Positions 2,938 to 63,166 of a stretch of DNA of 64,000 bases are shown in pieces; positions within the stretch are counted from its first letter, which is position 1, and each line of letters opens with the position of its first letter. The translations under genes were made by a program, and so were the position numbers. Under the pieces are notes generated by a model that was given only the letters and a program-made list of their open reading frames with translations, was not told where the DNA came from and ran no database searches. Origin of the DNA: Lingula anatina (taxonomy: Eukaryota > Animalia > Brachiopoda); the NCBI GenBank assembly GCA_051362555.1, contig CM120646.1, positions 1,178,001-1,242,000 on the forward strand, read 5' to 3'.

Positions 2938-4818
2938 ATGGCGGCCAAGCAAATAGATCTGTCGGCTCTAAATATTCAACAATTACAACAATTATCGCAA
3001 CAAATAGACCAGGTAAGGTTGCATGTGTTTAAGATTATGGTTTCCAATGAATAAAGCTACTCTTAGGATAATTGGTGTTTTATACATTTTAGTAGATGAT
3101 GCTAAGTGGGGCATCTTGTTTCCCCTTGTAACCTAGGCAGTAGGCTAACTGACATGTAACACGAGGTACCTCATTTTAAGTTAATTAATGTTTTTGGGAG
3201 GGAAAGAGGAGTCATTCGATGGTTGTAACATGTTCTTTTGTTCTGATTTTAATGGCGTGTTAGTTACTACGTTTTGTAATGTCAATATAATTTTTTATTC
3301 AAGGCATAGAATTAAGGTTAATATTCAGTTTGTGAATCTTTCTTCACATAAGGAACATTTGAACAAATGTAAGCTTCTTTGAACAAGTTGAAATTGACTT
3401 TGGTGTTTCAGGAGATAGAATTCTTTACCTCCTCCCTCAGTCAGCTAAAGATGGCCCAGCAGAAGTTTGTTGAATCTCAGGATTGTCTCGGAAGAATCAG
3501 CCCAGAGACAGATGGGAAAGATGTCCTTGTTCCCTTGACCAGCTCTGTATCCTTCCTTACTGATATGAGAGAGGGAGAGGGGTTAAAAATTGCCCGTAGC
3601 TGCTGTGGAGCGTGTCTATCTTTGTCACATTTCACTAAGAATCACTTGCATTGTTTTCGTTTATCTGTCTAGTTAATGATAATGATTACTTTAAATATGC
3701 CTTCTCTCTCTCTCTGGATCAGTACCCCCCCCCCCCCCCCCCCAAAAAAAAAAAAAAAAAAAAAAAATGCAGATTGATGAACAAAAAATTTTTCCAAGTC
3801 GTTAATAATGATAATGTCAACCTCACATTATAATGTAGTAATAATGTTATATAATATTACTATTATTATTATTATTATTATAATTATTATTATTATTATT
3901 GCTCCTTGACTTCAGACTTAGATGTATGTACCAGGAAAGCTGTCAGATGTAAGCAATGTTCTTGTTGATATAGGAACAGGGTATTATGTGGAACAGGTGA
4001 TTTAATAGTTGTATTATTACCATTTTAGGATTGTTCATAAACTCTACTTTCATAAAAATCAATGCAGAATGTCAAAGTCTTTCCTTGTTGCAGTGGTTTC
4101 AAATGGTTCAAAGGGCTCAGCAGCCAAAGACATATTTTTAAATTTGTTAAAACAAAGTTATTTTATGATGGTAAAGGCTTTAATTCTGCTGAATATCTTT
4201 GGGATCAATGCATTTATAATTCAATTTTTTTACGTATTTATTTAAATAAATGTGTAATATTCTGTCTCCAGGAGGTGGAGAATGCCAAGCAGTACTTCCA
4301 AAGAAAGGTGGATTACCTTACCAAACAGATGGAGAAACTACAGCCTATACTACAGGATAAATATAGGACCAAACAAGGTGGGTTGCCACAGAACACGTGA
4401 TCATTTTTACACATTGTGGTATTTATATAAAGCATTTTGTTACCTTAAGTTCCTTTTTTCTTGGATATTACATAACTTGAGAAATAAGGCATAATTATGT
4501 AAATAAACGAAGGTCTCATTTGGCAGCATATCCCCTTGTAGGAAGTGTTCCAATTTCTTTATATTTTCTTAGAGCACAAAGTGAATTTTGTGCTCTTATT
4601 GCAGTGTACATAATAAGCAATCAGGTGACAAAAGTTGTACATCAGAATTCTTGCCAACCATCAATTCAGTTTTCTTTTGTTAGAAATGTTTAAATGTTTT
4701 TTTTTTTTTTTTAATTTCAGCTGTGATGGAGGTACTGCAACTCCGAGTACAGGCGCAGTTAGCCGCCCAACAGCAGTCATATGCAGCCGCAGCACAGACA
4801 GGGGCAGCCAAGTCATGA
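2938..4818 (+). CDS. PFDN5: Prefoldin subunit 5 (162 aa, 5 exons)
   Basis: Exons 2938-3012, 3412-3546, 3922-3996, 4272-4377 and 4721-4818 join in phase. Alpha-prefoldin signature [15 protein letters not shown]...[12 protein letters not shown]; AATAAA near 5204. Confidence 0.96.
3547..3921 (+). other. U12-type (minor spliceosome) GT-AG intron in PFDN5
   Basis: 5' site GTATCCTT at 3547; branch point TCCTTGAC at 3903-3910, about 10 nt before the AG at 3920-3921; no polypyrimidine tract; splits LTSS|MYVPG. Confidence 0.92.
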
Positions 4819-6620: not shown

Positions 6621-8575
6621 TTAAAAAGCTGCATTTCTGTTCAGCGCCACCTGTCTGAGAGTGTTCAGGTGGCCTCCGTACAGCTGAATCTTGGAGCTCA
6701 CTGGTTGCCAGGCAACATGTTCAACTGATGCCCCCGCCTGAAATAGGAGAATATTTCACAATTAGAAATGTTAACACTGTAAATAACAGTGGCCTACATG
6801 CACATCAATACTACCTTTTCTATGAAAGTGTGGTTAATTTAAAGTAAATTTATCTTTGATGTATGAAAAAAGATGCACCAATTGCACAACGGTGTGAATA
6901 TGATAGAAAATACCAAAAGTTATCAAAAAGCAATCAAACTCCAGCATAGAAAAGCGTGGTGATTTTCCTCATTCTGGTGGTTTTCACATTTTTCATTATT
7001 ACTTGGCACAGATTCATTTTGAAATAACCAATTATATTCAGGCATGCTTCTTTGCTACATAGGCACACTATGTGAACTGCAGACTCTTCATATTGATGCT
7101 CTGTGACAATTGATTTGAATAATTTAATACTGCAACTGTTGATGGCATAGACAAAAACAGATAAAACGTTCACTGCCATCATTAAACAACCTTTCAAAGA
7201 GTTGTAAAAATTCACAAAATAATACAATAATAAATAGGATGAATGTCCATTAATTCCTGATAGTTATTGTAACAGTCTAAAGAGGCACACCTACCTTGAG
7301 GTTCAAGGTTTCCAGTATCTTACCCTCTTCATCATGGTAATTATAGGCTGTAGTTTCTAACCAGGCATTGTCCGTATTCCGTGGATCATCGGCGTAGCCC
7401 TCATATACCTGAATAGAAAAAACACATCAGTGATAGGTAAAGTGAAATATTTGTTTAAAAACTTTCATCAAATTTGTAGATAGCAGAGATGAAAAACCTT
7501 TTGACCTCTATGGACTAGTGCAATATTTCTGATACTATTGTTTTATTTCCATACTCTAATGACGCTCGGTGTCCCTATAACCTTCAACTTGTTAATAAAC
7601 AAATTGCTCCCAACATATAAAATTTTCAAAATTTTTATATTCCCATGTGAAATTTACAGAAATGAATGACTGCAATTATAAATTTTTTCACTAAAGGATT
7701 TTAGTTATCATACACTTGTTCATTTCTGGATATCAATATTAAATTAGAGATACTTGCCTTCTGTCCTTTCTGTATCAACTGTTCCAACTTTTCATTTTTG
7801 CGTTGGGAAGTATCTGCGGCGTTTTCACCCATAGCTTCTTCAGCAAATTCCATCCTCAAGCAATCCAGGACATTTTGACCAGGCTGGATGATACCCTGAA
7901 ACAAGCCCATTGTGTTGTTAGGTGAGAAATATGTCCATTGTGTTAGGTGAGAAACATGTCCATTGTGTTAGGGAAGAAGCATGTCCAATGTGCTGAAGGA
8001 GAAATATGTCCATTATTATTTTTTTTTTTGGTAAATGATAAACTAAAATGTACAAATTTAGTAAGGCTTGATTTTTTTTTAATACATCCAGAGTGTTAGG
8101 CGAGATATTTTGTTGAATGGTCTCTTCAAATATTTTCAAATTTGAATCAAGCCATGTTGTCTTCTGTCATGGTTCTGTATAAAGTGTACTGGAAACTATT
8201 TCAAACTTTTGTCTGTAAAACTGAAAAATCTCAATGATGCATATTCTATATTTCTCACTCTGTCATGTCTTCCTTACCCCTGGGATGCCCCATTCACGAT
8301 TGCCATCTTTCCGTTGAATAGCCACAAATTCTAGTACTTTTCGCCCATCTTCAATAACAATTTGGCCATTTTCACCACGTTTCCACCTAAAAAGACACAT
8401 TTCAAGTTAAATCCAACAGATGTTTTCATGACCAAACTGTATCCTTGACCTACATATAAATCTTACCAAGTCTTTGAGGTTCTAATCCATATCAGTTACT
8501 GTAAGGAACGACATGTCTGAAGTGTATGACATTTTAACGCACACATAAAATTTATGTGACAAAAAAAAAAAAAAA

Positions 8576-8632
<57 letters not shown>

Positions 8633-11600
8633 ATGTATATTTCAAAGGCTGTGTGTCTGAAACAAAATGTAATGAAATTACAACAGGCACAGAAAGCATT
8701 ACAAAGTATACACATATTAACTATACCTGGTGACAACTGGGTCACCGCTGAAATTTGGTCCCCAGCGTCCCAGCAGTCCGCGCCCCATCAGTCCCGTCCT
8801 ACCCCTGGGGTTAAGAGGCAGGCCATTCTTGTCAATCTTGTACTGCCCTTCGAAGCTCTTCCTGTTCACTTTGTAGGTCTTGTCATACTCGTTGAAACTC
8901 AGCTTCTTCTCAGGTTTGCTGTATGATAAATATGTTATTTTATAAATGTAGGCAAAAAAACAGATTGACAAAAAAGAGAAGATGAAAACATTCATGGCAA
9001 ATGTGGCGTTTTATGTCTCAAACTGCTTATGAATAATATATCTTACACAAATAATGACTGATATCTTACTGCATTTGTTGTTGTGTTAGGTGTTACAGTG
9101 TGTTGAGTGAGTTAGGTGTCACACTGTATTGGGTATGACATTGTGTTAGGTGTGTTATTGCGTTGGATGTGACAGTGTGTTAGATGTGACAGTGTCCTAG
9201 TGTGACTGTGTTAGATGTGACAGTGTGTTAGATGTGTTAGGTTTGACAGTGTGTTAGATGTGACAGTGTGTTAGATGTGTTAGGTGTGACAGTGTGTTAG
9301 ATGTGACAGTGTGTTAGATGTGTTAGGTGTGACAGTATGTTAGGTGTGACAGTGTGTTAGATGTGACAGTGTGTTAGATGTGTTAGGTGTGACAGTGTGT
9401 TAGGTGTGACAGTGTGTTAGATGTGACAGTATGTTAGGTATGATAGTGTGTTAGGTATGACAGTGTGTTAGGTATGACAGTGTGTTAGGTATGATAGTGT
9501 GTTAGGTGTGACAGTGTGTTAGGTATGATAGTGTGTTAGATGTGACAGTATGTTAGGTATGATAGTGTGTTAGGTATGACAGTATGTTAGGTATGACAGT
9601 GTGTTAGGTATGACAGTGTGTTAGGTATGATAGTGTGTTAGGTGTGACAGTGTGTTGGGTGTGACAGTGTGTTAGGTATGACAGTATGTTAGGTGTGACA
9701 GTGTGTTAGGTGTGAAAGTGTGTTAGATGTGTTAGGTGTGACAGTGTGTTGGGTGTGACGGACAGTGCAATCTCACCTGTTGAGAATATCAGGGTCTGCC
9801 CACTCAGGACCCTCCAACACTACTGGACTGGTGTATACTGTTGGACTGTATTCAGGGAACGGGACCTGATATAATGTGAAATACACTTAAAATAAATGTT
9901 TGTTGAAACGAAGATGGAAAGATGAAACTTATAAATGGGGCCTAAAATAAATTAACATACACTTTAAAGATATTATGCTGAAAAGTTTTAAGTGTAAAGT
10001 TCCATATTATACATTATAATATACATAAAGTGTTTTCCAAAATCATATTGTTATAAATATTTCTTTCAGGTATACATAAAGCATTGACTGTAATTTCTGT
10101 ACCAGTAAAAAAAAATTGAAAAACTCACCGTCCAAGGAACATTGGCATCCGGTACTTGAAATCTTTTCACGTCTGGCCCTGCCTCTGGATACGGAGATGT
10201 GCGGCTCTTCACGTGAAGACGCACTTGTTCCGACAACATCATCACGTAACGCTTTTTTTCTTGTTCGGCCAGATCATTCTTCCTTTCTTCCTCTGAAATA
10301 TCCAATAAAACCAGAGAATTATATACCACAGTTACTAATAAAAATGTCAGGAAACAACATTCGATTTTGTCACTTTTTTCAACATTTAAAAGTGGTGAAT
10401 AGCTAAATAAAATTTAATACTCTGTAAAAAATAGAGAATGTGAAGTTCATTTGAATAGGAATGTGGCAGGAAACTCAACATTAATGTGTTAATGTGAGAT
10501 CAGGTCTGTTACATATGTCAATTGCATTCTACTAAGTATTATTTAAGCGAAAAAATGTTTTTTTTCCAAAGCAGAATGAAGGTGATATTGATGATCAGTC
10601 TCATATGTCACCTATTTACCTTCTATTTTCCTCTGCTTGGGGTCTTGCAGTTTTGGGGGGTTGCCCTTAGCTTGCCCACTCATGTTCTGGACTATCCAGT
10701 GGAGAGCTTGGAATGTTGTTTCCAGCTGGCGATGGGGGGAGAAAAGATAATATTAATAGATATCAAATCGTTACATATAGTCAATATAACATTCCATAAA
10801 AAATCACTACGAGTGCTAGGACTACTAAATGAAAATTAATGAGGTTGAAATAGTCTTGGATACAAGGCTTCAAATGGTAAATTATGCATGCCATTGGATA
10901 GTTTTTTTAATGTACAAGCTCTTAAAGGACAACTCAGTGGGTTAGATTAATGTATAGAAGCAGGTTCTATGTAAAACTTTGATCAGATTTGTGTTTTGGG
11001 AGATTGTTTATTATTATATGAATAAGTCTGGGTCACAAAAGTCCTGTTAAGACAACTAGAATAAAGAATTAGAAAACGAAAACTATTTATCATGATTTCG
11101 GAGCACAGCCAGAAGTACTTTCGGCTCAAGGTCACGACCTCGATTTTCCCACGCTTACGACCAATCACAGCAGGCTTCAGTCAGAATGAGATAGACGTCA
11201 CGACTACACAGCGAAACTTGTCAGGCATGTAAGTGCCGCCTGTCCATCTTTTCGGTACATGTACCGATCAAAAACAGAAAACGTAAAGCCCAAAACGCTC
11301 TTATACACGTAACCAACTTTGTATGAGCACAAATATTGTCATTTATTGTGAACAGGATAACAGTGTTCTCCACGACCTGTTTTTAGGTGGCGCTGCGCCA
11401 CCTTATCTTGGCGCTGAGCCACCTTATTGAGTTTTGTGCCACCTTATGTAAACGGCCCGCCACCTTTATTTTGAGCAGTGAGCAGACCTTCAGATTATTT
11501 TCTTGTAGAAAAGTGAGATATTAAACTTGAACTTGCATAGCTTGACTGTTGTTTTTGCATCCCTTTGACATTAACATATCGAAAAGATACATTGTACATT

Positions 11601-14600
11601 TGCCGCTCACGTACACAGTGTACGTACGCACGACCATAACTGCTCTTCCCCCACCTTATAATTTCAAGTTGTGGAGAACACTGGATAATATGATAATCAG
11701 ACACACTTGAGACCTGTGAAGCGCATACTCACGTGTCGAGGAGTAGTTTTGCCATTGCCTCGTATGTGAGTCCTAACTCAGCTTTAAGTGTCCTCCACCG
11801 CCCCACCTCCCTCCCAACATACACAGTCTGAGTGCTTCTTCGTCTGTCTCTAATTTTCTTTCGTATCTTTCGAACTGGAGTGGCTATTTTCTTTCGCCCC
11901 CTTTTGTCGCTCTCCTCTTCAGACTTGACGCGCGTCTGAGCCATCTTTGCTGTTTTGGCGCCAAATAGTAATATCCGGGTCTCAGCCGTAGTACTTCATT
12001 CATAGTAAACCGCGAGACTTAGCGAGAAATTGCGCGTTCTGAAGCCGTACTGTGAGGTGGTAGCTGAGTATTTAAGACGAGTCGTCTTTTATTATTTAAT
12101 GGAACTTAAAAACGGTATTAGGTAGCTTCATTTTCTGAACGGTTTTGGATAGGATATACCTTGGTCATTATGGGGAAATTGGTGAGTTTTCCAGGAAATT
12201 TCATTTTCGTGCTATTTTAAGGGTTTAACGCGCTGAGACTGTCTTTAAATATGTCATTCTTTATTGCTTTATAAATCTAAAAGGACAAAATGTAATATGA
12301 AGTCAATCTCAGACCGGTTAAACTGTCACTTCACTAAACATGAACTCTTCTGTAATCATACTACCAGTTCACTGGCAACCATTGGGGTAACTACAACCCC
12401 CTTCACACTGGACGGCTGCGTCCTTTGTGCGACCATGAAACTGGCCTCACTGTTGTCGTAAAAAGGAGACACAAGCATCGCTTTGGTTGCAGAAAGAATG
12501 CTCAATAATCAGCCAGTTGTTAAGTTTTCTTTTTTACTCTTAAACGAGGCCATACTACAAGGAGGCTTAAATAAGAGGAGTACCTGTTCTTCGATGGAGT
12601 TGAACCTCTCTTCCAGGTAAGATGGCTCTTTGTTAGCCAGGGCTTGCTGTTTGGACCTCATCCCTAACATTGCGTCCTTCAATGCCTCCACATTCACAGA
12701 GGCAGTCTCTAGCCTGGAGGGTAAAATATCTTTATAAATAATATTTATACAACACGATTCAGCTCTTAAAGCATTTCCTTCACCATTTTGTATATTTTAA
12801 TCCTTCATAGATGCTATGGTCAGAATTGTCATCATATGTACAGCTATGAATGTACTGTGTAAGAAATATCAGGCACTGTGCTTAGAGAATAACAACTTTG
12901 GAGAACAGAATTAATTAGAAGAACAGTGCGCTTGTGTAGAGTAGAAATATGTTTGGTCAAAAGTACTTTTGAAGCAAAGGTCAGTAGCAGTGCAGCTGTT
13001 TATCATTCTCATCATTTCAAAGTCATACTCACATGTTCTTACTGTCCATGACCTGCATCTCCATCGTTGCCTTGTGAAGATGGGCGCGTCTTCGTATAAA
13101 CTCTTCTCCGTTCATAAACTCCCATTTATTGAGACGTTTAGACACACCTTCGTCTTTAATTCTCCATTCTGCAGGGGAAATAAGGGTATTAGTGCTCAAA
13201 ATAAGTTGTATTTGACATTAATATTACAGTTAAATTACTCTCTTGTAGGTTTCTTGTAACTTTGATTACAAATTTCAGGAAATGTTCTATTTAATACTTA
13301 ACAAAACTTTCTTAAAAAGTAATGCTTCTTAAGTCTAAAATAAAAGGCAATGCTTACAGGCTTTTATATAGAATTTAAAAATATCAACATATAGTTGAAA
13401 TTAGTCTTTGACAACTCTAAACAAATATCATACCAAAAACTCCTATAATCAATATGAAAATTAACAGGCATGGGTTGTATTTGATAACAATTTGCCCTCC
13501 ACACAACTTACTGAACACATTGCGTTTCCCAGCATTATGGGCTTTCTTACAGCAAATTCTCAGTACGGTACGGATGGAGAGGTATATATGGGATAAGATA
13601 ATGAGGGGCGGGGCCAGCGGGGGGCGCGTGTGGTACTCGTAAATGAGGAAGTAGCGTTGGTAGTGCCAGTAATGGTCTGTGTTTTCCTTCACCTTATCAA
13701 ATGTGTAGCTGCAGAGAGAGAGACAACAGTGATGGTAAACAACAATAGCAACAACTAGGACTATGACATGCGCCAGGATCTGCAATTGCCAACATTTAGC
13801 AGAGAATCGTACCTACCAGTCATTCTACAAAAATTGACTCTCTGGTTCATGTCACTGATGCACAAATTTTGTGATGTATTTGCATAAATGTTTTTTATCA
13901 CTGTAGTCTGTTTTTTTTTTTTTTTTTTTTCAACCACTGGTGTTATAGTATAATACAGCAAAATATGAACTGAACAAATCAGAATTATAAAAAGACTACA
14001 CAAAATGTGTACATCACTGGTGTGACTCTGAGAGTCATTTTTAGGGAATGACCCAAAAATTACATAAATAAATAACAAGCATGCAAAATGTATAATGGCT
14101 CAAGCAAGCATGATATATTTTGTTACCTTCAAAAATATTTTTACCTGCAAAAATATTTTCTCTTCGTGAAAAAGCAATAAATGACAATCTTTCATTTTTT
14201 TGCCTTTGGTCACCAAATAGTTTAAGTAATTTGTTTAATTTGGTTGAGAACAACACCTTACATGCCAAAGCAAAATCATGCTTTCAAGCTCTAGCATTAC
14301 CCTGAGTTTCAGAGAGCTGAAAGAGTGACAGGAACCATAAGTCACATGGAAAGGTGTCCTGTTATCAGTCATCAGTTATCTGAGACTCAGGGAGTACAAT
14401 AACCATAAATGCAACAATGACCGTAGCCTTGAAGATAGCTGGTATGAGGCTCCCTGAAATATTGACGGTTAAATTGCAACGTGAATATAATATATTACAA
14501 AGCCATTATTCTGAGCACCACAGTACAGACAATGACATGCCGTTATCTGGGATATGCTATCTGTATCCATAAACTGTTTACGATAACAATTTTTTTAATT

Positions 14601-16476
14601 CTCAAAACTACACTTTTTCAAATATTTGAATATTTAAAAATATTCAAACTTTTTTCAAGTTTCATCTTTTTCTGACACTTTCAATAAGGAATTTTTTCTC
14701 TCAAATCCAACTTATTTTTCAATAATTTGGAATCAACATTTTACATGTGTATTACTGATAAAGCATTTCTTGGAGAAAATTTCTGATTCATGTCACAGGA
14801 ATTTAAATAGCAATTACAGAAAACAAACTCTGAAACCCCCAGGTGGATTCTTGAAATCAACGAAATCAAAACTTTGCTGCAAATCACAATGCAATTGCGC
14901 TGCTTGATAATTATTATGCTTGACCATCTAAGCCACAAATTTCACATACATGCAAATAACACAAAACAACCGAACTTAAACACAAGAGAAAGCACTGTTA
15001 GTAGCAGGATACACGAATCCTAGTGTTTCATGCAGCGGTGAGTGAGTTAAACACGTGCATGGCATGCATTTAGTATCTACTGTCGAACACTGGGGGGGGG
15101 GGGGGGGAGACTGGGATTACTGGGGTGTGTTTCCATTTCAACGTACAGACTTAGGCCTGAGATAGTCTAAATGCGGCACAACATTGCAGATCTCTCAAAG
15201 TTGTGTCATTTTAGGTCCCTGGGGGTTTCCACATTGGGATCTTTATGAACTGGAGGCCACAGGGGGACAGGGGGGGGGGGAGGGAGAGGGGCCTTCATGG
15301 CATATGTCCCCCTGGTGGCATCTGTTTGGATGTTTCTGTTCCAGTTCAAAGTGGGGTTGAGGAATTTTTGAACTACAATGATAACCATATGACACCTTTA
15401 TGTAGGCCATATTCTACTGTGTTCCCCATACATGTGCATGTGTGATCTACCCCGCATGCACGACTTACTGAACAGATTCTGATGATCGTCTTTCCTTCTA
15501 CACCCGCACTGCCCCAGCAGCCATTCTATACCCATCTTGATGTGAGAGATAATTATAAAAGGGGGCGCCAGTGGAGGACGACGAAAATACTCATACGCCA
15601 GAGTGTAACGCTGAAATTTCCACACCACGTCAGCCTGGGCCTGCACCCGCTGGAATGTGTAGCTGGAGAAAAATATTGTGTTAGATGTGAATTGGAGAAG
15701 ACAAAACACAATTGATGGCCTCTGGAATGCATTATCACACCACTTCAGTCTGTGTCAGCACAATGTAGAATGTGAAGCTGGAGAAATGTGATTTTTTATT
15801 ATTGTGTTAGGTGCGACATGGAGAAGACACAGCACAATGTAAAATCTCAACATCATGTTAGCTAATGTGAGAACAAACTGGAAAATTGCAGCTGCTGGAG
15901 AAAATGAGATGAATTTTATTTAAAATGTAGCACAACTTTTGGAAAGTTTGTAGTGCTCAGCATTTCAAAAATTGAAAATTGGACACTTTTAAATCTTTTT
16001 CTTTTTCTGCTACATGTATTTTAGTAACTAATTGAAACAAAGTAAATCATCAACTGCAAATACAAAAATAAATAAGTACCCTGAAATTATAAGTTCTAAA
16101 ATAATGACTTGCTTGCTAATAATAATTCCCCCTAAATGTCATGAAATAAAGAGCAGTATAAGTTGTTTTCAACATCAGTGAAAACAGAGTTGTTCCTGAA
16201 GTCAAAACAATAAAAACTTCTTTTATTAACAGAACATTCATAAAGATTTTATTACCCATTAAGTGTAACTTTTTAGCCAATTTCCATATCCTTGTTTAGT
16301 CCTATTACAAGTTAAATAGGAAAACATTTCCCTAATGTAAAATATCTCCTTTGATCAATATTTTCATTGGTAAAACTAAAACACCACCAAATAAATGTGA
16401 AAATATAAAATTTCCCATATATACTTCAAATAAAGTGTGACCATGAACAGATATAATAATCTTACATATAATTAAC

Positions 16477-16517
<41 letters not shown>

Positions 16518-19500
16518 CATGCACGCACGCGTGCACACACACACTCTCTCCCTCTCTCTCTGAACACACACACACACACTACCCTATCCAAACCCAGGAC
16601 TTACCTAAACATGGCAATGAGGAGGTTAAACATGAGGATGTTGGTGAACAAGATGTAGAGGCCTAGCAGTATGGGGGTCACCCAGGTCCCTGCCTCTGAA
16701 GGACACCGCGGCAATGTACTATTATCAGCCAGGTCTGTGGTACAGTCAGTGATACCTACAACACAATGTGAATATATTATTAACAGGTGTGTGTATGTGT
16801 GTGTGTTTGTTTGTGTGTCATTGTGTGCATACAAGCGTGCATACCAAGAAACTGTAGAGGTAAGAGAAACACCACCATCACCATACTTCACAATATCAAA
16901 GAAATCACAACATATCTACCTTCAATATCCTCTAAGAAGAGCTCTCCATACATCTGCCAGTATGCTTTCCTCAGCACGTCCACAATAATCACTGGTGTAA
17001 GGTCCACGTTAGGATACAGAATAGCCTGCGACGCCAGGCCATACGCCAGCACAAATACCATCAGGATCACAAAGAAACCAAGCAGATCTATCACCTATAA
17101 AGATAAATGGAATATTTTACACAACAATATGACAAAAAAAGGACAATCCCAGATTTGATTTCTAATCATTACTTTAAAAATGAAGCTACAAAGATATAGA
17201 CAATTACCATTCTTCCAATCATCACAAGCATTGGCCCCAGGGTTTTCTGTACTGAAAAAATGTGGAGAATTCTGAACCAGAAGGTCATCAGATTCAGAGC
17301 CAGCACAATCCTTGCCGCCTCAAAGCAGCCCTCGCACCCAGGAATCAACCTCAGCACAGTACCCGTGAGAAAGAACAACAGCGTCACAACATCCACGACA
17401 TTCCAGGCATCATAAATGTAGCTCATTAACTTCAGGCGGAACACCGAGGCATCGTCTGCGAGCAGCTGCCGCACCTCTTCAACGAGGAGAGTGAAAACCC
17501 ACACCATGAGGATGTACTCGGCCGTGGAGACGGTGGGATAGAAGTTGGTGAGGAGGATGTAACTGAACAGCATCAGGAAACAGAGATATGAAATCTGGAA
17601 GTGGGAAAATACGTCTTAATTTGGTGGATAAAAACACATTGTCTATTAACTTTGAATTTTATGGTATACATATATGTTTAATAAAATGATGAAAATTTTA
17701 ACTGACTTAAAAATTCTGTATCACCCATTCTTTTATTCAAGTGTTCAATCACAGTCTTAGTCACCCTGTGTTTCAGAGTTCTGACATTGACTTCTACTAA
17801 CTCAGCTTTGATGATACAAGTGTGGATTTAAGCGAGTTTCTAACTGACCCTCAGGGTGATTCACAGCAGTTGCGAATTTTCAAAATATAAATAAATAAAT
17901 AAATCCCCAGGGGTGTGTACTTACACAGTTGTGCAAGAAGGTGGTGAGGGGTGCATTGTAGAAGAACCTAATCCTGTCGTACCAGGTCAGTTTACGCCCA
18001 GTATTTCGGATGTCTAAGCCTTCATCTCCGAGATTTTTCGCTCCAGGACCTGCGTCACTCGCCTTCTTTTTGAGTGGATAAGCAGATCGTTGACGCTTCA
18101 GGCTAAAAAGATTATTTGAAATTAGGCATTTCCTATTTTCTCATCAGACAGCATTATAAAACAAACTGTTTTGAAAGTTTGCACATGGGTCTTAACGAAA
18201 TTCACTATTGAAACAATAAAATAAAAAATTTGACCAGAAATATACTGAAAACATGACCAAGCATTTTTCAGATATCGAAGTGGTCCTTTTGAAAATATCT
18301 AAAATTCAAGCACCAAAGGTGTTCAGTTCTATATGGGAGTCTGAGGCATAAATAAAAAAAAAAAATATCCACATTTCTGAATAAATCTGGAAGTATTTCA
18401 TCTTTTAGTTTTATTATTTGCCAACAATTTGCCCCCTATGCATTGAACAACAAAAACTAAAAAAAGTGTCATCCATAATTACCCTCTTGGGTTGTCCTGC
18501 TTGCCCTTGTTCTTGTTGGCAAACCTACTTTGCTCATCTTCCCTGAAGTAGATCAACCCCAGCAGCAATGGAGGAAACAGAATAGAGAGCCAGATCTAAA
18601 ATAAAGATAAAAAATTCAGAGGAAATAAATCAAATGTAATAATTACTACTACTTACAGACAAAGCAACCTTATTTCTCATCTATATCTTAAATCCATATA
18701 TCACTATTTCTATCTATTTATTACTATAACTTTTGCTATCATTATTATTATTAGTTGATCATGTACTTATTTATTCATATACATATTTCTTCTTCATTTA
18801 TTCATAAGCTTAAGTTATTTACAAGTTTATCTATTATTAACTATTTTTAAATGAGACAATATATATAGCAATTACATGAAGAAAAAATTATACAAATTTC
18901 ATATCTAAGGTATTACAGCTAATTAAACAGATAACCCCCCCCCCCCCCCCCTCTCCACAACTTGTGATAAACTCCTCACCCTCCACAACTTATTCTTGTG
19001 AGACATCTTCCCCATCCAGATCTGGTTCAGCAGTGACTGGCAGCAGGCGTGAGAGATGAACGTCTTGTTGTCTCCCTCCACAGCGAGCTGGAGACATGTA
19101 GAGTTCCCGTAGTTTGGCAGTTCTCGGATCAGGAGTTCCTGCGAGGCACGAGCCTCGTCAGATAAATGGCACTCGTTGAGGACGCCACAAGCGATTTCCT
19201 CGTAGTATCTAAAGGGAGATTGAATATGTCATTTTAACAGAATTGGTCTATGATGCTGTATTATATGGGGGTGTATTTTTTGTTTAGAGCTAAATCATAT
19301 ATACATACATAAAAATCAAATTTGTGTTTAGAAAGCCTGATATCATTTTAAAAAAACATTCAATAAAATGTTGTGCCAGTTCTAGGCACCAAACAAACAT
19401 CCCTGACCAATACTTATGTTTGCCTGCATACAGAAACACACTGTCCATATATCCATATGAGTTTGAACTGAAGTTCTGGCTATTATCCATGAGGCTATAT

Positions 19501-22500
19501 TTTCACTTGGAGTTGACATGTGAAATATAAATGTAAAGTAAAGCTAGAGAACTGGGCTATATCAACATACTGTCCATGTTTCCGTAGTTTAGACTGGAGT
19601 TCCGTGTCCTCCGTGTGTTTCTGCATGGTCTGTAACATCTGGGCAGCAGTCAGGGCAGCTCCTATTGGTTCCTGGAATACAGCAGTTGATTGCAATTAAC
19701 CAGCCAATTAGGTATACAATAAGACAAGGTGTAAGATGATTAAGTTCCTTATCCTGTTCATGTCAAGTCTTATTTGGTCTAGAAAGGGAAGCGCAGTAAC
19801 AATTAACAACATGTGTGCTCAGACAAGAACTTTGGTCCTGCTCACATTAGTTCTAACTAAGACTATAACTACTAGGCAACATACCAGCAATATAAGTGTC
19901 TGTTCACACAAGAATAACACTAAGCATCTATAGGTAACAGACCAACTACACATAGCCTCAGACTCAACAAATTGATAAAATCACCATCTGCTCTGTATTC
20001 TACTCAATGCCAGGAGAAGGCGTGTTAATCCATTTAATATAATCTGATTGCATTCAGCAAGAGTCCATTCAGCTAGTGCACACTTACTCATTCTCAACGA
20101 CTCCTTACCTCCAGTCTCTCCCAGAACAGTTTGGACATTTCCATTCTGTTCATGAGCACTGCAAACACAAACAGCTCTCGAGCAGGGACATCAAAATACT
20201 CATGGTTTTGGTCTAAATCACTGCTGGATGCTGCTGTAGCTAAAATATGATAAAGTTAACATGAACAATTCTCTGGCTTGGATATCGTAAACGTTATGAT
20301 GTTTGACTGATGTTAATTAGTCTTTAAGTAAAGAATAATTCCATTTTATCAAGGTAGAGCACATGAAAAGCTATTATCTCCTTAGCCTTACAAAGCTGAC
20401 CTTATATCTTAAATTCTCAGAGACATATCACTTACACATGTGCCCTTCAGTCATGGAGTGTCTCCTCATTGGTAGCCGTGATTCCTCATCATCTTCACCA
20501 TAATATCTGATTAATAAATAGATATAACACATCGTACATGTGCTATCACCACAACAGAAAGAAGACCAAATACCACAATGATTATCATTTATAATTTATA
20601 CAGTATGAATGGTAATCAGTCATACCTTCTGGTCTTGGCGTGTCACTGGAGAATTTTCAATTAACATTTTAAGAAACATAACAGCGTGCCACTTAATTTT
20701 TTCAAGTTATTTACCAACACAATCCCCACCTTCACAAACACACTGTTTCAACTACAACATCTTGTCTCCACTAACACACTACATATCTCAACTAACACAC
20801 TGCATCTCAACTAGCACAGTTCATCTCTCAGACTCCGCCCTCATCTCTCAGACTCCGCCCACATGTCTCAGACTCCACCCTCACCTGGGATCTCTGGTGT
20901 ACAGAGGAGAATAAGAGTCCCCCATCAGTTCCTGGATCACCATGGCGATGTCATAAAGATTGACACACATACCCTAATGAAAAATCAAATTTCTTTTTAT
21001 AAATAAAGTTCTTGATATCTAAGAAAATGGCCTTACTTATCATTATAACAATGATTACATTCTAAAATAAGACCCTTACAAAAACTTCAATATATGTGGG
21101 AAATAATTTTATACACGTTATACTACATCTTGCCTGTGAGACATCAGTATGCTTTACATCAAAGAACACACACTTCAAACAATAAATGGTGTTAAATGAA
21201 ATATTTGCACTTTATTCACTGCACTTTTCTTTACAAAATCACCCAATATTTCTATATATTAGAGGTGATACCAACCTTTCTTTTAGGATCCCTGAATAAA
21301 TCAATCAGGGTGTTCAAGTAGCTATTTTCTGGAATCTGCAATTAAATGATCAGAAGTTACTGGTGTATAAACACTGTTTTTAAACACCAAAAAACATATT
21401 TTAATCTTATTTTAATTTCTCTCTTAAATTTCTACTTTTCTAAAGCAAAACAACACCCAAAAATGGTGGTCACCCTCATCCATTCTCAACATATGCCAAG
21501 GGTCCTTAAAAAACAAACAAAAATGAAAAAAAAAATGAAAAAAGAATTATATGTTGTGCTTGAAGCTCAGGAGCACCAATTACAATACAAGACATTATGT
21601 TACATTAACTACCCTATATACTTACACTGTCATATAGATCTTCTAGTCGATCCATTGTCAAGAAGTCATGGAGGTTGATACCATTATCTAAAAAGAGGCT
21701 GATGAACTGCACCTTTCCAGCCAGTACAGCAGTTTGCATGACTTGATTGAAGCCACCTTGCTGAAATGAGACACAAATATAAGAATATTAAGATTTATTA
21801 GACGTAATCGCCTCACCAATTAAAAGATAAAAGCACATCCCAGGAACAGTGCATTGTAAGATTCATAAACAGGATTTTGTCCTCTTAAATCTGCCTCTTC
21901 TTTTATTGTGGAATACCTGGGCTGAAATGCACATGCTGATGGAGCAATGTTTCTGTAGAAAAAAACTTGACTGTGTTTGAAGAAATCAAGGGTAACCAAA
22001 TTTTAAAGTTTATAATTTGATAACGAGGTAAAACATGATCTCCAAAAACTGAACAAAAATGCATATTGTAAAATAGAAATAAAAGTACTTACGTCCAATT
22101 TGTAGTCGTCTGTGAAGATTTCTGACTCCGCCACGTCTATTCTGTTCCAAGCTAAAGCTAGCCGCAGTTGTGTCAATGTCTCATTGCGATTGGCTGAATT
22201 AAAATGAAATGTAATAGCAATAAATTTTCTTGAAACACTGCTAAATTTCATCTGCTGTGTTATGTACTGAAAGTTACAATAACATTTTCAACTTCAAGTT
22301 ATCAGCACTCCAATATTTCAGTGACTACCAAACCACCTTCATCTGGGAATGCAGCCCCAGGTGGCAATGGCCCCATTCAGAATAGGGGACTAACTACATG
22401 TAGTCCGAGGGCCAAATATGGCTGACCCACTTGAATACTTCCCCATGGGATATTTATTCAGTGTCTATTAGCCAATTAGACGACAAGCTTTGTAGTGGGT

Positions 22501-24610
22501 TGCCAAATTTGACCATTGGACCCTATTCTGAATGGGGCCATGTATATTATGACAACCTAAATACTTAATGCAAATAATCATTAGAAGCACAGACAAACCT
22601 TTCAGTAAAGCATGCAAAATGGCCACATCAATGTCTTTGGCAGTTTCCCTTTGGTCTATGGTGAACACTGTCACCAAGTCACGATGGATCAGGGACTCTT
22701 TAATATACGTCACATTCTGAATCAGATTCGTTTCTCCAAATTCCTCTTTCACCATCTCCGTGATTTTCTTGTCAGTGAACTCATCTATCACTGTGATAGT
22801 CCTGCAATGAGAAAAAATATCTTCTTGTATATTTGATAGTTTTATAATAATATAAAAGATTAAATATTTTCTTAGACATTAAATTTCATCTTGCTGAGTT
22901 TAACTTAGCTTAGCTAAGCTTGGTTTAGATCAGTTAAGTTTATCTGATTCTGTTTAATTTTATCTATTAGTAATTGCAATTGAGTGTCTTAATATCACTC
23001 CAGGAAATGGCGAAGGCACAAAGTTCCCTTCTCCCAAACAATATTCCCTCATTTAATGAAAACAAACAGAATTTGCCTCTTCTTACCTTTAAAATTTTTA
23101 ATTTAAAATTTGAGAAAAAAATACTCACTTAGATTTTTTAGCCCCAGTCTGATCAACAACAGGGATAACGACTTCTCGAGAAAACTTGTAAGCAAAGGCA
23201 AAGATATCTGCTGCTCTGCCAGAGCCCTGGAAGCAAGAAATAAATAAATAAATAAACAACAATAACAACAACAATAATAATAATAAATCATATCTTTATA
23301 TCTCACTTGTAATAATTCTATTCAATTTAATAAAATCCCAAAACAACATGAATTTTGTTTGATAAATGACTATTTTGTACCAAATAATTAACAAATAAAC
23401 CAAAATTGTATAAATGATCAGCTGTTCCTTACGTCTACAATAACAGCAGGTGTCCCGTTCATGATGGCACTGTGAACAGTGTGGATGGTGCCAGGACCTC
23501 CTTCCACCACCACCAGGACTATAGGAATAGCTGGGGGAAAGGAAAATATATATGAGGCTGAATTCACATATTTATGGATGAAAATCTCTATGGATGAAAT
23601 CTGAATGCTATTTTCTTTAACAAAAATGAAGTATCAGTATAAAAAGTACATAAGCCTGAATTCACATATTTACGGATGATATCTGAATACTAGTTTTTTA
23701 TAAAAAAAAACAGATATCAGTTTGAAAACCTCTAAACCAAAAATCTTTTAATTCATAATTATATCGTCTGGGAGACTGCATAACAAGAGTTTTAGAAAAC
23801 TCAAATTTAATAAATAACATCATATTTGTAACTGGCATCAGGCAATTACTTATCCCCCCCTCTCTCGACCACCATTTGAAGACCCTCTCTACTTACTTGT
23901 ATCCACAGCATTCTTCTGCTTGGCAATCTCGTTCTCTAGTGCGGCCCTGAAGTCAATCTCTTCCCCAAAGATCAGTTCAGTCCCCTGATCCACCAGGATG
24001 AAGTGGGTGTGGTTGGGGTCCAGAGACGCAGCTCGCTTGTTGTTCTTCTGGGGTTTGTACATGGCTGGCCACAACCCCTGTAATATAAAGACTACAGATA
24101 AGTACTGCTGGCTACCGACACGTGTGGCTTGTAACGAAACTAGAATATGCACTGTATTCTCAAAGCTATATCTGTCAGACAGACAAATTAACCAATATCA
24201 GTGAAAAAACAGTCATCTTCACTAGAGTACATAATAAATATGAATAAATATAAATGCATAATAAACAAAATGATATACGTCTCATTACTTCTGATTTCTT
24301 GTCTCCAGCCGCCAAGTCCGTCAGCTGCTCTTTGCTGGCTACACAGCCCCAAGTGGCGATGCCAATGGTGACAAGTTTCTGCCGCGACCCTGCTGCGACC
24401 GTGTAGTCTAGAACTGCCTCTCCGACGTGCTTCATCACCCCAGCGTTCATACCGCCCGTGATAATCCAGGCACCTGTGAGGAAGGGAGATCTGTGTTATG
24501 TCACTATGTAGAACAGTATACTAGCTATAGGCAACACTGACCAGTGAGGAGAGAACTGCTGATCAAAATACCCAGCCACTTCCTGGGGTGATGGCAATTT
24601 ACCTGCCATT

Positions 24611-24674
<64 letters not shown>

Positions 24675-26765
24675 AAAAGAAAGAAAGTAAGAAAGAATCT
24701 TATTTCTGTAATGGTATATATGCATCTGTGCTGAAGGCCAGAGACAGCTTACAAAACCCTTACAATGGCAACCTGCAATAAGGCCACATCTCTCACTATA
24801 TGTTACCTGTACTCTGTCCTGCCTTCACAAGACCCCTCCTAAACACCTCCTTCAGTCTCGGCTTCATGGTGAAGTTTTTCGCACCCCCTGTGACGGAGAT
24901 GAGGAGGTTTGGCAGCTCTAGGTTCCACTTGTCCATCAACAGCTCTGTCATGATCTCCATGTTGGTGTCTCCAGCCACACGTACATACTACAATAGATAT
25001 ACATTATATCATTGATTATATGTTTAATTTACGATGTATCATTGTATTGTATTGTATTGTATTGTATTGTATTGTATTGTATTGTATTGTATTGTATTGT
25101 ATTGTATTGCATTGCATTGTATAGTGTTGTGTTGTTGCATTGCATTGTCTTGTATTGTATTGTACTACTTTGCACAACATTGTGTTGTATTCACAGTACA
25201 CACAACTATCCTCCAGTCACTGAGGTGGCATGACTGCTGAGCTGGTAACTTTCTGATTTAACATAATGAATTAATTACCAATTTGAATGAATATGAATGA
25301 AAATGCCAGAAAATACCTGAAGGGACATTTTGTGTGATATGAGACCCAAACTAACATCACATTTATCTGGGGGCATAATGACTCAAAAATTTAGTTTTTT
25401 AAAACTTAAGACAAATTTTCAAGATGAAGTTTTTTTTAGTAGTAAGTCCCCAAAAGTGTCTGACTAGTCTCACCTTCCCTGATCTGTCATTGAACATCTT
25501 AAACTCCACCTCACCGAAGGCATTAGTAGGTAAGTGTTTGGTGTGTGAGTGAACAGTCCATTTGTCTGGAATGCTGGACTCCTGTGCTTCTGGGGTGTGG
25601 GCCTGTTTTTCACGACCGCAGTAACACACCCTGGAAATGAAATAGAAATATATGCAGGATCAACCGACAGATGAAAAACTTCAGCTTGAAAAGTTAACTC
25701 TGAAATGTAATTAGAAAATATTATTTTACTCAACTATTACTGTACATGCAAATTTTTCTGTCATAAATATTTTAAAAATAATTGGTTATAAATCTTCAAT
25801 ATGTATATCAATAATTATTCTCCATTCCACAACCATATGCATTCATATAGCAAAATGGAAAACTTACTTCTTTTCATCAGGAGTTTCACTAGAAAATTAA
25901 AAAAAATACATCATAATGTTTTTACATTTTTATACAATATATACAAATATATTATCTACACAAGTCATATTTCCACCATTATTATCAAAATCTCTTACAA
26001 TATAAAAAGCATACTGTTCTTACTACTTTATTAATGTGTTAATCATTTTAAGGGATTTATCATATTCTTTACTGAAAAAAATGTACAAAATGAGAAAATT
26101 TGACAGACTAATACGTAACAACCCATCTTGAATTTAAAACTATCATCAGGTATGATACAAATGGAGAATAAAATTTAATGTTATTGTGATCATTTTCAAA
26201 AAAAAAAAAAAAACATATATAAGAAGCTTAAGTTACAAAGCATTTATATGCACATGAATACATGTTCTTTATGTGCGTAAGAGTGTGACTGCAAGTATAA
26301 GTGCACGTGTATGTGTGTGCATGCATGTGAGTGTAAATGAAGAAAAACGAGTGAGTCAGTGAGGACAGGAAAGCAAGCAAATCCCTACTCATCGGCTCCT
26401 TTCTTTGAAGGTTTCTCCATAAAACTGCAACATTCTCGCCGTTTGATGTGTTTTGGGATCCAATCTGATAATTCTAAATCCTAAAATGTACGGAAAAAGT
26501 TATAAATGCTATGATAGTCACAGCCAAATCAATTTTGAGATATTTGCATTATTTTAATACGTAAATAATTCATCCAGAACTTTTCAGCAAAAAAAAAATT
26601 ATAATAATAATATATAAAACTATTTACTTCTTCTGTTTCACAAGGTGGCATTTGTACAGCTCCCGTCTCCTGAACACTTTCAGCTTGGATCACATGCTGT
26701 AACTCCACCGTGTCATTTGGTACCAGCTCTTCCTCCATGGGGGATACTTTACCATTACGCTTCAT
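6621..26765 (-). CDS. TRPM2: TRPM2-like cation channel with C-terminal NUDT9-H domain (~1580 aa, 33 coding exons per isoform)
   Basis: Phase-consistent exons: 26765-26628, 26480-26389, 25630-25474, 24987-24807, 24473-24289, 24077-23897, 23530-23433, 23226-23129, 22801-22599, 22193-22093, 21760-21626, 21335-21276, 20973-20885, 20506-20436, 20239-20109, 19671-19571, 19208-18980, 18595-18483, 18102-17925, 17594-17208, 17094-16920, 16755-16605, [15662-15469 OR 13708-13512], 13168-13033, 12713-12584, 10725-10620, 10292-10129, 9865-9777, 8918-8727, 8386-8278, 7895-7758, 7408-7295, 6737-6621. Motifs: [42 protein letters not shown], pore [46 protein letters not shown]. Strict orthology to vertebrate TRPM2 is not established. 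Confidence 0.95.
7409..7757 (-). other. GC-AG intron within the NUDT9-H coding region
   Basis: Exon ends ...GQK with AAG|GCAAGT. The phase-0 join to [16 protein letters not shown] at 7408 works with this GC donor. Confidence 0.85.
7906..8013. repeat. ~25-bp tandem repeat x4 abutting a TRPM acceptor
   Basis: Unit approximately GTCCATTGTGTTAGGTGAGAAATAT, degenerating rightwards. Confidence 0.8.
9085..9760. repeat. Intronic minisatellite, 17-bp unit
   Basis: Dozens of copies of GTGTGACAGTGTGTTAG and variants (ATGTGAC.., GTATGAT..) with occasional partial units; starts about 15 nt from the donor at 9776. Confidence 0.95.
11361..11683. mobile_element. MITE with CAGTG termini and 5-bp TSD (hAT5-like), nested in the Kolobok-like element
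   Basis: Perfect 13-bp TIR CAGTGTTCTCCAC/GTGGAGAACACTG; GATAA on both sides; subterminal GCCACCTT repeats about 20 bp apart. Confidence 0.8.
11733..11944 (-). pseudogene. First exon remnant of a transposon-borne gene (basic N-terminus, ...[30 protein letters not shown])
   Basis: aagATGg start; donor CAC|GTGAGT at 11733/11732. Resembles the R-rich V-x-I-G...RW..L....G......A..LLD module recalled from Kolobok-associated proteins (not database-checked). Confidence 0.5.
13512..13708 (-). CDS. TRPM alternative TRP-helix exon B ([36 protein letters not shown]...)
   Basis: 197 nt; polypyrimidine-CAG acceptor and GTAAGT donor; phase 2 to phase 1; no stops; paralogous to exon A. Confidence 0.92.
15469..15662 (-). 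CDS. TRPM alternative TRP-helix exon A ([36 protein letters not shown]...)
   Basis: 194 nt; CAG acceptor and GTAAGT donor; phase 2 to phase 1; canonical TRP box WKFQR. Confidence 0.92.
20821..20880. repeat. 20-bp tandem repeat x3 next to a TRPM donor
   Basis: TCATCTCTCAGACTCCGCCC x2 plus one diverged copy. Confidence 0.85.
22367..22541. mobile_element. MITE with 21-bp perfect TIR
   Basis: ATGGCCCCATTCAGAATAGGG ... CCCTATTCTGAATGGGGCCAT; internal sequence shared with 32372-32538. Confidence 0.8.
24612..24697. repeat. (AAAG)n microsatellite
   Basis: Direct reading. Confidence 0.95.
25040..25165. repeat. (ATTGT)n microsatellite
   Basis: Direct reading; source of the spurious CIVLY and NTIQY ORFs. 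Confidence 0.95.
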
Positions 26766-38600: not shown

Positions 38601-38855
38601 CTCACTTCTACTTTCTGTCCTTCACAATTTTTAATTCTTGTCGTTTTTGCAGCATTTTTGTAACGTTTTTCCTCGCTCTTGATAAGCGCAGAGTAGGTCG
38701 TTTTATAATTTCACTTTTTATACATCTTCTAATTTATGATTAAATCTATTCGGTAAAAGCAAAAAATAAAATTTAAAAAATCGGTCCTTTATTTCCAGAC
38801 AATGAGTGCAGGCGGCCAGGCGGAGACAGGAAAGCGAAAATACAGGAGAATGTAG
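31128..38855 (+). CDS. Fatty acid-binding protein / intracellular lipid-binding protein (141 aa, 4 exons)
   Basis: Exons 31128-31203, 36044-36231, 38425-38529 and 38799-38855 have the canonical iLBP intron phases 1,0,0. N-terminal YLGKWVL (GxW), YTFKLGETFE, YSRVVDGNDM and C-terminal R-x-Y (KRKYRRM). Confidence 0.88.
32372..32538. mobile_element. Diverged MITE of the same family as 22367-22541
   Basis: Ends AGCGCATTCAG / CTGAATGCGCT; shared internal CAAATATGG..GACCCACTTGAAT and TCAGTGTCTA..TAGTGGGT.GCCA. Confidence 0.7.
32734..33140. mobile_element. Long-TIR MITE (~70-bp arms), TA-flanked
   Basis: ATGCCCCTATTTCACACAGACCACGAATCCCACGAATCGCCAGGAATTGA at the left and its reverse complement at the right; many ACGAAT/ACGATT subrepeats. 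Confidence 0.9.
33146..33319. mobile_element. Second, diverged right-half copy of the 32734-33140 MITE
   Basis: Repeats TTTTTGCCAC...GTTAAGAACTTCACGAACTGATTACGATTCAA...GGTCTGTGTGAAATAAGGGCATTA. Confidence 0.85.
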
Positions 38856-62234: not shown

Positions 62235-62304
<70 letters not shown>

Positions 62305-63166
62305 TAGAAGACAGACAGAGAGAGAGAGAGAGAGATTCCCATTTCCAGGAGGAAAATTCCTATTCTGAATTAAACATGTATATTTAACTTATTTTCAGGA
62401 ATTTTGATTCCCTGAATCTGACCAAAGTGACTTTGAAAGGAGTCAAAGCTGCCCATGAGAAGCACAGTAAAGATGCTGAGAGCAAGGGAGTCAAGGCACA
62501 CTTCAGAATGGACGAGAGTGGAATTCTAACTCTTGACAGGGTCAGTTGATAATATGAAGAGCTTCTGATATTTATCATTCCACTTTAGACTCTTTCCTCC
62601 TTTTTCATTTATAAAAATTATAACATCAAGAGAATCATGAACCCTTGGCCCCAGGCCTGAAATACTGAATTGATGACCTTTGAACTTGAAAAACTAACAA
62701 AGCCGATTTTAGCATTCTACAGACCACTACTGTACTGCAAGTTTTTAATGCAGTGGCATTTGTTTTAAACAGTCAGTCAATATTTATTTTTTACCTTCAC
62801 CAGGTGGAATCAGTTTATGAAAAAGCTCCTCCTCCGGAAGAAGAATCTACCCTAGCAAGTAAGGGACATTTTTACCATAAGATAATGTTTTTTTTTTTAC
62901 CACTTAAACTCACAGAATTACTTTTGTTTTGAATAAAGTTTTCATTCAAATGTATATTTTACTAAAATGAATTGGTTTCATGCAAAAGTTTAATCAGTGA
63001 ATTTATGTCTGGAGTTTTTTTTTCAGAGCTTGGTAACACCATTTCCAACTTTTTCTCTGGTAAGAGTGAGGAGGAAGGAAATGTTGAAGACAGCAAAGAG
63101 AAAGATGACAAAGGGAAGGAGAACGGAGGAGAAAAATCTACGGACAGTAAAGATGACACATCAGAG
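54221..63166 (+). CDS. HYOU1: Hypoxia up-regulated protein 1 (GRP170/ORP150, ER Hsp70-family chaperone/NEF); the 3' part lies beyond the window
   Basis: Exons 54221-54284, 54473-54534, 54890-54921, 55178-55256, 55494-55645, 57368-57444, 57947-58075, 58523-58627, 59169-59241, 59743-59929, 60247-60381, 60830-60912, 61426-61558, 61983-62158, 62399-62540, 62804-62858, 63027-63166. Signal peptide, [94 protein letters not shown]. Confidence 0.96.
55881..56094 (-). mobile_element. PIF/Harbinger-like MITE, copy 2 (TSD CAA)
   Basis: GGGTGTATTCCCAGAG ... CTCTGGGAATGGGGTC flanked by CAA/CAA; reverse-complement homologue of 50956-51170. Confidence 0.85.
56162..56338 (+). mobile_element. CAGG-ended MITE with poly-G, copy 2 (5-bp TSD TTAAA)
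   Basis: TIR CAGGCCCGTAG/CTACGGGCCTG; TTAAA on both flanks; same internal sequence as 28432-28612. Confidence 0.85.
62236..62332. repeat. (AG)n microsatellite
   Basis: Direct reading. Confidence 0.95.

Follow-up and report, generated by a model that had tools for sequence, protein, structure and literature searches.

Within a 64,000-nucleotide stretch of the genome of the brachiopod Lingula anatina (contig CM120646.1, positions 1,178,001 to 1,242,000; this whole stretch is the window, and all coordinates below refer to it), the gene for TRPM2, a TRP (transient receptor potential) channel, contains two tandem copies of the exon that encodes the end of the sixth transmembrane helix (S6) and the TRP helix. 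These copies, A and B, are probably an old and selected pair of which one at a time is used in frame, likely giving two isoforms that are predicted to differ in sensitivity to phosphatidylinositol 4,5-bisphosphate (PIP2) and in charge at the inner gate. In TRPM2, TRPM4, TRPM5 and TRPM8 the TRP helix couples the movements driven by Ca2+, PIP2 and ADP-ribose (ADPR) to the S6 gate, and it is normally single-copy and conserved.

The four exons concerned all lie on the minus strand. The upstream constitutive exon (16605..16755) encodes the end of the pore turret and S6, and ends in phase 2 with a split Ser codon that is the same with A or B. Exon A (15469..15662; 194 nucleotides (nt), 64 full codons) and exon B (13512..13708; 197 nt, 65 full codons) encode the same segment, namely the S6 end, TRP helices 1 and 2 and the beginning of the TRP loop, with the TRP box reading WKFQRY in A and WHYQRY in B. 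The downstream constitutive exon (13033..13168), which leads from the TRP loop into the stretcher/rib helix, offers a phase-1 acceptor common to both. A and B each have the acceptor CAG/CTACACATT and the donor TTCA/GTAAGT, are open, and run from phase 2 to phase 1; the introns measure 942 nt (upstream exon to A), 1760 nt (A to B) and 343 nt (B to downstream exon). All of this agrees with the coordinates, lengths, splice sites and phases given in an earlier annotation made from the DNA letters alone (the sequence-only reading), as does its claim that using both exons or neither breaks the frame: with A alone or B alone the next two exons are read without a stop (203 and 204 residues), whereas A and B together meet a stop 17 nt into B, and with neither there is a stop 10 nt into the downstream exon. 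Each exon thus restores the frame on its own, with the same phases and canonical splice sites.

Hence, we consider it very probable that A and B are mutually exclusive. The donor at 16605 would join either A or B, and the chosen exon would join the acceptor at 13168. Transcripts with both exons or with neither would have an early stop followed by many introns, and nonsense-mediated decay would be their expected fate. Because of the frame only single-exon transcripts give a full channel, and the safeguard of exclusivity is likely to be the frame together with decay. Exclusion by steric clash or by a distant branch point was rejected, and a mismatch of U2 and U12 sites is not supported, in view of the 1760-nt intron, the AG-free zone of 44 nt in front of B and the GTAAGT donors of both exons. 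As possible material for exclusion by competing RNA pairings (docking and selector sites), the region 13169-16604 contains 26 inverted repeats, a count made without a shuffle control and with no related intron sequence for comparison, and one of them (I8) lies over the polypyrimidine region of B.

The two copies have diverged far from each other. At the protein level 31 of 66 residues are identical (tblastn E about 1e-16), the largest difference falling in the last 20 residues; over the first 48 codons there are 26 identical residues, only 8 of them with the same codon, and the DNA identity over the first 144 bases is 51%. The introns around A and B share short matches only (best E 0.008). Low identity in DNA and protein, together with such introns, argues against a recent duplication and against a doubling by assembly. 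A profile search of the window with the segment found just two full copies, A and B, and mapping the RefSeq protein XP_013398789.1 on the window gave no second match for any other exon of the gene. Over 44 ungapped codons the proportion of synonymous differences between A and B is 0.85, which is saturated, and that of nonsynonymous differences is 0.34. At 18 columns the family is conserved (in at least 85% of 35 reference sequences); 17 of them are kept in A and 16 in B, and A is the nearer of the two to the family consensus. In neutral simulations starting from B (20000 at each of three distances) 5-15% of the sequences remained open, and 0 kept at least 17 columns. As the synonymous sites are saturated and the conserved residues have nonetheless been kept, these are neither artefacts nor pseudo-exons; judged from these sequence measures, both copies are old and under purifying selection, which bears out the description of the pair as old and selected in the sequence-only reading.

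The same swap is found in molluscs. Among the best 120 of 229 homologues, mollusc orthologues have two kinds of post-S6 segment (type 1 and type 2), and isoforms from the same locus with either kind are present in 5 of the 15 mollusc clusters examined, a fraction that is biased upward since the 20 clusters examined in all were picked for having several members and partly for a second segment kind. The pairs come from Mizuhopecten yessoensis (XP_021362499/498), Pecten maximus (XP_033724836/821), Crassostrea virginica (XP_078332505/504), Haliotis rufescens (XP_048236492/491) and Pomacea canaliculata (XP_025081224/227). The two members of each pair part 1-5 residues beyond the S6 motif and come together again 56-64 residues later; outside this stretch they are identical. 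At the junction one Haliotis form has R and the other W, which would fit a phase-1 exit as in Lingula. The type 2 segment was seen in 11 species, of which 5 are bivalves and 6 gastropods, and a Nucella gene model has both copies in tandem with type 2 first, the sole double match among 405 proteins in a scan with a hidden Markov model. These isoforms are database gene models, unremarked X1/X2 entries in RefSeq, where isoforms usually rest on transcripts. The proposal to look for the exon pair at TRPM2-like loci of related species is answered by an annotated swap in five molluscs, a result that extends beyond the sequence-only reading; this mollusc swap of the segment equivalent to that of Lingula is new here. 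No swap was seen in the Lineus cluster (0/1) or in those of Branchiostoma, Asterias, Lytechinus and Acropora (0/4), among the members listed (15 of 18 for Lytechinus and 15 of 40 for Acropora; for the large mollusc clusters, 15 of 75 for Magallana and 15 of 27 for Mytilus), and absence from annotation is a weak negative, Lingula A itself being unannotated.

RNA from Lingula itself was represented by four (X1, X4, X7 and X8) of nine runs matched by species label, of each of which 6-26% was read. Depth in the bin with A was 2.83 in X1, 1.8 in X4, 1.26 in X7 and 0 in X8, and in the bin with most of B it was 0, 0.01, 0.72 and 0.86 in the same order, where dips may be an effect of filtering and zero depth is no finding. 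Thus, 3 of 4 runs have reads over A and 2 have reads over B. In X1 those over A run in the direction of the gene, the flanking intron-only bins free of poly-G have a depth of 0, and the depth per exon base is about 4.9 on A and 6.9 on the downstream exon. The depth of the X8 bin with the last 40 nt of B equals about 3 reads x 40 nt, which would fit reads leaving at the donor of B. These data support the presence of both exons in Lingula RNA. The RNA check proposed in the sequence-only reading was therefore answered in part, with read depth on both A and B, and with no junction of either among the 15 of 53 joints listed, in a region crowded by poly-G reads (9700-19300). On the annotation side, exon B is a 100% match to XP_013398789.1, the sole member of its protein cluster, and RefSeq has B only. 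No Lingula protein with exon A was found (8 matches among 11 candidates; best identity 68% among the best 150 of 642), and A appears to have been unannotated so far.

We placed the swapped positions by ungapped alignment to solved chains. The segment aligns without gaps to human TRPM2 from 1050 (1050-1105), to the Nematostella channel nvTRPM2 from 1087 (1087-1141) and to TRPM8 from 981. From the S6 end it runs through TRP helix 1 and the re-entrant TRP helix 2 into the first part of the TRP loop, in the layout of the nvTRPM2 structure (PMC5976436; papers are cited by such numbers, each for the part of its text that bears on the point), and the earlier identification of the segment as the C-terminal end of S6 plus the TRP helix holds. 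Numbering columns from the start of the segment, a comparison of A and B showed that: 1) the main constriction (nvTRPM2 I1082/N1086, human I1045/N1049) lies in the upstream exon and the split Ser codon, and is the same for both. 2) The Ca2+ glutamate (human E1073, nvTRPM2 E1110; column 24) and the positions of TRPM8 R998 and R1008 (columns 18 and 28) are the same in both. 3) Column 4 (human Q1053) is Gln in A and Asp in B. 4) Column 15 (TRPM8 K995) is Lys in A and His in B. 5) Differences also lie in TRP helix 2 and the loop. Residues that restrict the pore are Q1053 and N1049, and E1073 binds Ca2+ (parts of PMC6759353 and PMC8145809), and the TRPM8 mutations K995Q, R998Q and R1008Q lower PIP2 sensitivity (in passages of PMC9805079). 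Thus, the claim of two gating modules in the sequence-only reading is to be toned down: A and B differ at the Q1053 and K995 positions and in TRP helix 2 and the loop, and agree at the I1045/N1049, E1073 and R998/R1008 positions.

Isoform A would combine the ancestral TRP-box Lys with a neutral Gln at the cytoplasmic gate position, and isoform B would have His and Asp at the K995 and Q1053 positions. Both would keep the Ca2+ Glu and the two PIP2 Arg, and so would stay gated by ADPR, Ca2+ and PIP2; going by the mutagenesis and structures of TRPM8 and TRPM2, isoform B would need more PIP2 and have a more acidic inner mouth. Most likely, then, both Lingula isoforms are ADPR/Ca2+/PIP2-gated, with B predicted to be the less PIP2-sensitive and the more acidic at the inner mouth, and we lean towards the view that the two differ in gating. 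Molluscs would use the same switch, with the upstream copy more strongly altered. Mollusc column 4 is E in 11/11 type 2 segments and Q in 18/20 of type 1, and in type 2 column 18 is Q or N in 5/11 and column 24 is D or N in 5/11. In the type-2 exons P0316, P0192, P0199, P0209, P0184 and P0229, several gastropods lose the Arg at the R998 position and have Asp for the Ca2+ Glu, and Mactra has Asn; by these substitutions such copies are the strongest candidates for altered gating.

Next to exon A we find a decayed partial third copy of it, A-prime (15731..15838, minus strand), which the sequence-only reading had overlooked. It consists of a duplicated branch/acceptor region and 13 codons followed by TGA TAA, and its alignment score of 99 compares with 36 at most over 1000 shuffles. 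The acceptor of A-prime, with its first base at 15777, is placed 115 nt upstream from that of A, and the copy retains a branch-like CTAAC and TTTCTCCAG. A-prime could serve as a decoy acceptor.

Several observations weigh against two expressed and differently gated isoforms. No junction of A or B is among the listed joints and no Lingula protein containing A is among the best 150 of 642; the depths amount to a few reads only; the intronic background in X7 reaches 1.45; X4 has depth on A and none on the downstream exon; and X1 has zero depth on two constitutive exons, those of the S5-pore and S6 (16441-17082), with several reads per base on their neighbours. As dips are uninformative and X1 is at zero on constitutive exons too, a sample-specific switch cannot be read from the zero depths of B in X1 and of A in X8. 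On the side of function, the effect in TRPM8 is largest for R1008, shared by A and B, and smaller for K995 (in the text of PMC9805079 that deals with them), the basic TRP-box side chains face away from lipid in apo nvTRPM2 (as described in PMC8145809), and the acidic residue at the Q1053 position is on the lysine-less copy in Lingula and on the lysine-bearing copy in molluscs. That exon A is a silent or dying duplicate, B alone being in use, would agree with the B-only annotation in RefSeq, the want of an A junction read among the 15 of 53 joints listed and the decayed copy adjoining A. We nevertheless regard it as very improbable, for, saturated as the synonymous sites are, A lies nearer than B to the family consensus; its splice signals are intact, and the sense reads of X1 reach about 4.9x on A as compared with 6.9x on the downstream exon. 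More improbable still, to the point of being negligible, is an assembly artefact in which two haplotypes or paralogues were merged. The window and the RefSeq protein do differ at scattered residues, so the species is polymorphic; but the DNA of A and B is only 51% identical over 144 nt, their introns are unrelated, no other exon of the TRPM2 gene is doubled and molluscs carry the same swap, so that the duplication, for which the sequence-only reading had allowed an artefact, is not a product of assembly. A weightier alternative, though still an unlikely one, accepts exclusive splicing and has the isoforms gate alike, the pair being kept for trafficking, for partner binding, for palmitoylation (TRP helix 2 and the loop are Cys-rich) or for setting the amount of channel through decay of mis-spliced transcripts. 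Apart from Q1053 and K995, all of the best-established positions for ligands and gate are indeed common to A and B, the difference is largest in the last 20 residues, and the decoy acceptor of A-prime could feed unproductive splicing. Against it, copy-specific residues are fixed across molluscs (column 4 is E in 11/11 of type 2; column 15 is K/R in 11/11 of type 2 and non-basic in 19/20 of type 1), and such fixation at the gate and the TRP box fits selection on gating.

The pairs of Lingula and molluscs could go back to one duplication or to two, and we compared these possibilities with an exon tree and approximately unbiased (AU) tests on 44 columns. In the free tree Lingula B, the full set of 20 mollusc type-1 exons and two nemerteans group together (bootstrap 94; Shimodaira-Hasegawa-like approximate likelihood ratio test (SH-aLRT) 82, just below the star threshold), without A; mollusc type 2 forms a clade (100/99), and A is unplaced near the base of the tree. 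The TRP-box position after the Trp (column 15) is K/R in 12/12 outgroups, in A and in 11/11 of type 2, and non-basic in B, in both nemerteans and in 19/20 of type 1. A single origin asks for one loss of the TRP-box lysine and a reversal in Pomacea, and separate origins ask for more steps. Further, the lysine-bearing copy is upstream in both Lingula and the Nucella model. Because of this shared TRP-box pattern, the grouping of B with type 1 and the same order of the copies, a single duplication before the brachiopod-mollusc split is modestly favoured on sequence grounds. Its rival, by which the two pairs arose convergently from separate duplications of the same exon, falls not far short of it in probability. 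The AU tests reject none of the four arrangements (A with B, p 0.367; A with type 2, 0.408; type 1 with type 2, 0.345; A with type 2 and Owenia, 0.321), so that both the A+B clade and the type 1+type 2 clade expected of separate duplications stand unrejected. In the free tree A and type 2 lie apart, and the identity of A is lower with type 2 (40%) than with type 1 (52%), the acidic column 4 is on B in Lingula and on type 2 in molluscs, the A-prime remnant indicates that this spot re-duplicates, and convergent exon duplication in ion channels is documented (in part of PMC9741552).

A residue-for-residue equation of A with mollusc type 2 was rejected, A being near-ancestral and type 2 strongly derived. 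If the single duplication is nevertheless placed in the ancestor of brachiopods, nemerteans and molluscs, which is dated to the Cambrian or earlier, it may have founded a two-position splice switch in the TRP helix, by which the TRP-box lysine and the charge at the inner gate are switched, together with the R998 and E1073 positions in several snails, such that one gene gives a PIP2/Ca2+-sensitive and a re-tuned channel; this fuller scenario we put forward only tentatively. The orthologue of the annelid Owenia fusiformis (P0160) has a lysine-bearing segment that is either A-like or unduplicated.

Exclusive duplicated exons are widespread among ion channels; the case of a TRPM TRP helix appears to be new. 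Ion channels are enriched in exclusive exons from tandem duplication, often convergent ones, and Drosophila slowpoke, Ca-alpha1T and para resemble the Lingula pair in having adjacent, old, paralogous exons of equal phase that tune one channel region, the slowpoke isoforms differing in Ca2+ sensitivity or conductance (PMC9741552). Unlike in those genes, the duplicated piece in Lingula consists of the end of S6 and the TRP helix, in a TRPM channel, and the main text and one supplement of PMC9741552 do not list TRPM (the Drosophila list of the supplement has TrpA1 and slo, and its human list is perhaps incomplete); this bears indirectly on the remark of the sequence-only reading that it knew no such swap in vertebrate TRPM2. 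Exons 12 and 13 of Drosophila TrpA1 (PMC4843867), the case known among TRP channels, are likewise exclusive exons in a TRP channel and switch heat activation, but that gene is of the TRPA family and the exons encode 36-37 residues before the first transmembrane helix, whereas the Lingula swap is in the post-S6 TRP helix. Other TRP-gene splicing concerns the first exons of Pieris TRPM and a 9-nt deletion in the TRP domain of Pieris TRP-gamma (PMC7143563), and exons 2 and 3 of Bactrocera TRPL (PMC6137742); these are N-terminal exons or a 3-residue trim and, unlike in Lingula, involve no whole duplicated TRP-helix exon. The nvTRPM2 channel of Nematostella (PDB 6CO7; PMC5976436, PMC13143021) is alike in domain layout, and A and B keep its E1110 position. 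In contrast to Lingula, the cnidarian and deuterostome clusters (Acropora, Branchiostoma, Asterias and Lytechinus) have one version of the segment among the members listed. A literature search that mostly did not extend to subscription journals listed no account of a TRPM gene with a duplicated TRP-helix exon, and the isoform swap goes unmentioned in the relevant passages of a TRPM evolution study (PMC13143021) and of scallop (PMC8539334) and abalone (PMC12980990) surveys. As these scallop and abalone TRP surveys are at the gene level and do not mention isoforms in those passages, stress and temperature expression studies of farmed shellfish may average two different channels. Natural pairs that differ only in the TRP helix, retained by a brachiopod as well as by bivalves and snails, are ready-made chimeras for finding the residues that set lipid sensitivity, Ca2+ affinity, conductance and heat response, and a single ancient switch, if true, would amount to natural TRP-helix chimeras in an otherwise identical protein.

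The host gene, TRPM2 (TRPM-beta), occupies 6624..26765 on the minus strand, over which the 1588-residue RefSeq model XP_013398789.1 (Lingula anatina TRPM2) maps from 26765 to 6624. It encodes SLOG, TRPM2-like, Ion_trans and C-terminal NUDIX/NUDT9H domains: Pfam matches are PF18139, PF25508, PF00520 and, weakly, PF00293 (NUDIX), and PF25969 comes from precomputed annotation. The domain layout of TRPM2 is thus present, with the SLOG/MHR region, the six-helix channel domain, the TRP domain and the C-terminal NUDT9 homology domain; no Pfam model matches exon A alone or exon B alone. In a quick tree on 480 constitutive residues, all upstream of the swap, the Lingula gene falls in a lophotrochozoan TRPM2-like clade of 34 of the 54 rows (SH-aLRT 92), a group named TRPM-beta in the relevant part of PMC13143021.

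The window differs from run X1 at six sites within 73 coding bases (10645-10717) and from the RefSeq protein at scattered residues, which reflects either high polymorphism or cryptic species under one label. An intronic part of the TRPM2 gene (10984-12267) has strong RNA depth in X1 and X4 with opposite read directions, and contains a non-canonical skip of 328 nt (11354-11683) with 6 shared bases; this part is probably a multi-copy repeat. Elsewhere in the window a 557-codon open frame at 48639-46969 (minus strand) resembles, as we take it, the reverse transcriptase of a non-LTR (long terminal repeat) retrotransposon. The neighbouring exon fragments at 46024-44992 (minus) and 54391-63181 (plus) presumably belong to a DnaJ-domain gene and an Hsp70-like (HYOU1-type) gene, respectively, and we take the exons at about 35000-38750 (plus) to be fatty-acid-binding-protein-like and that at 4056-4397 (plus) to be prefoldin-like.

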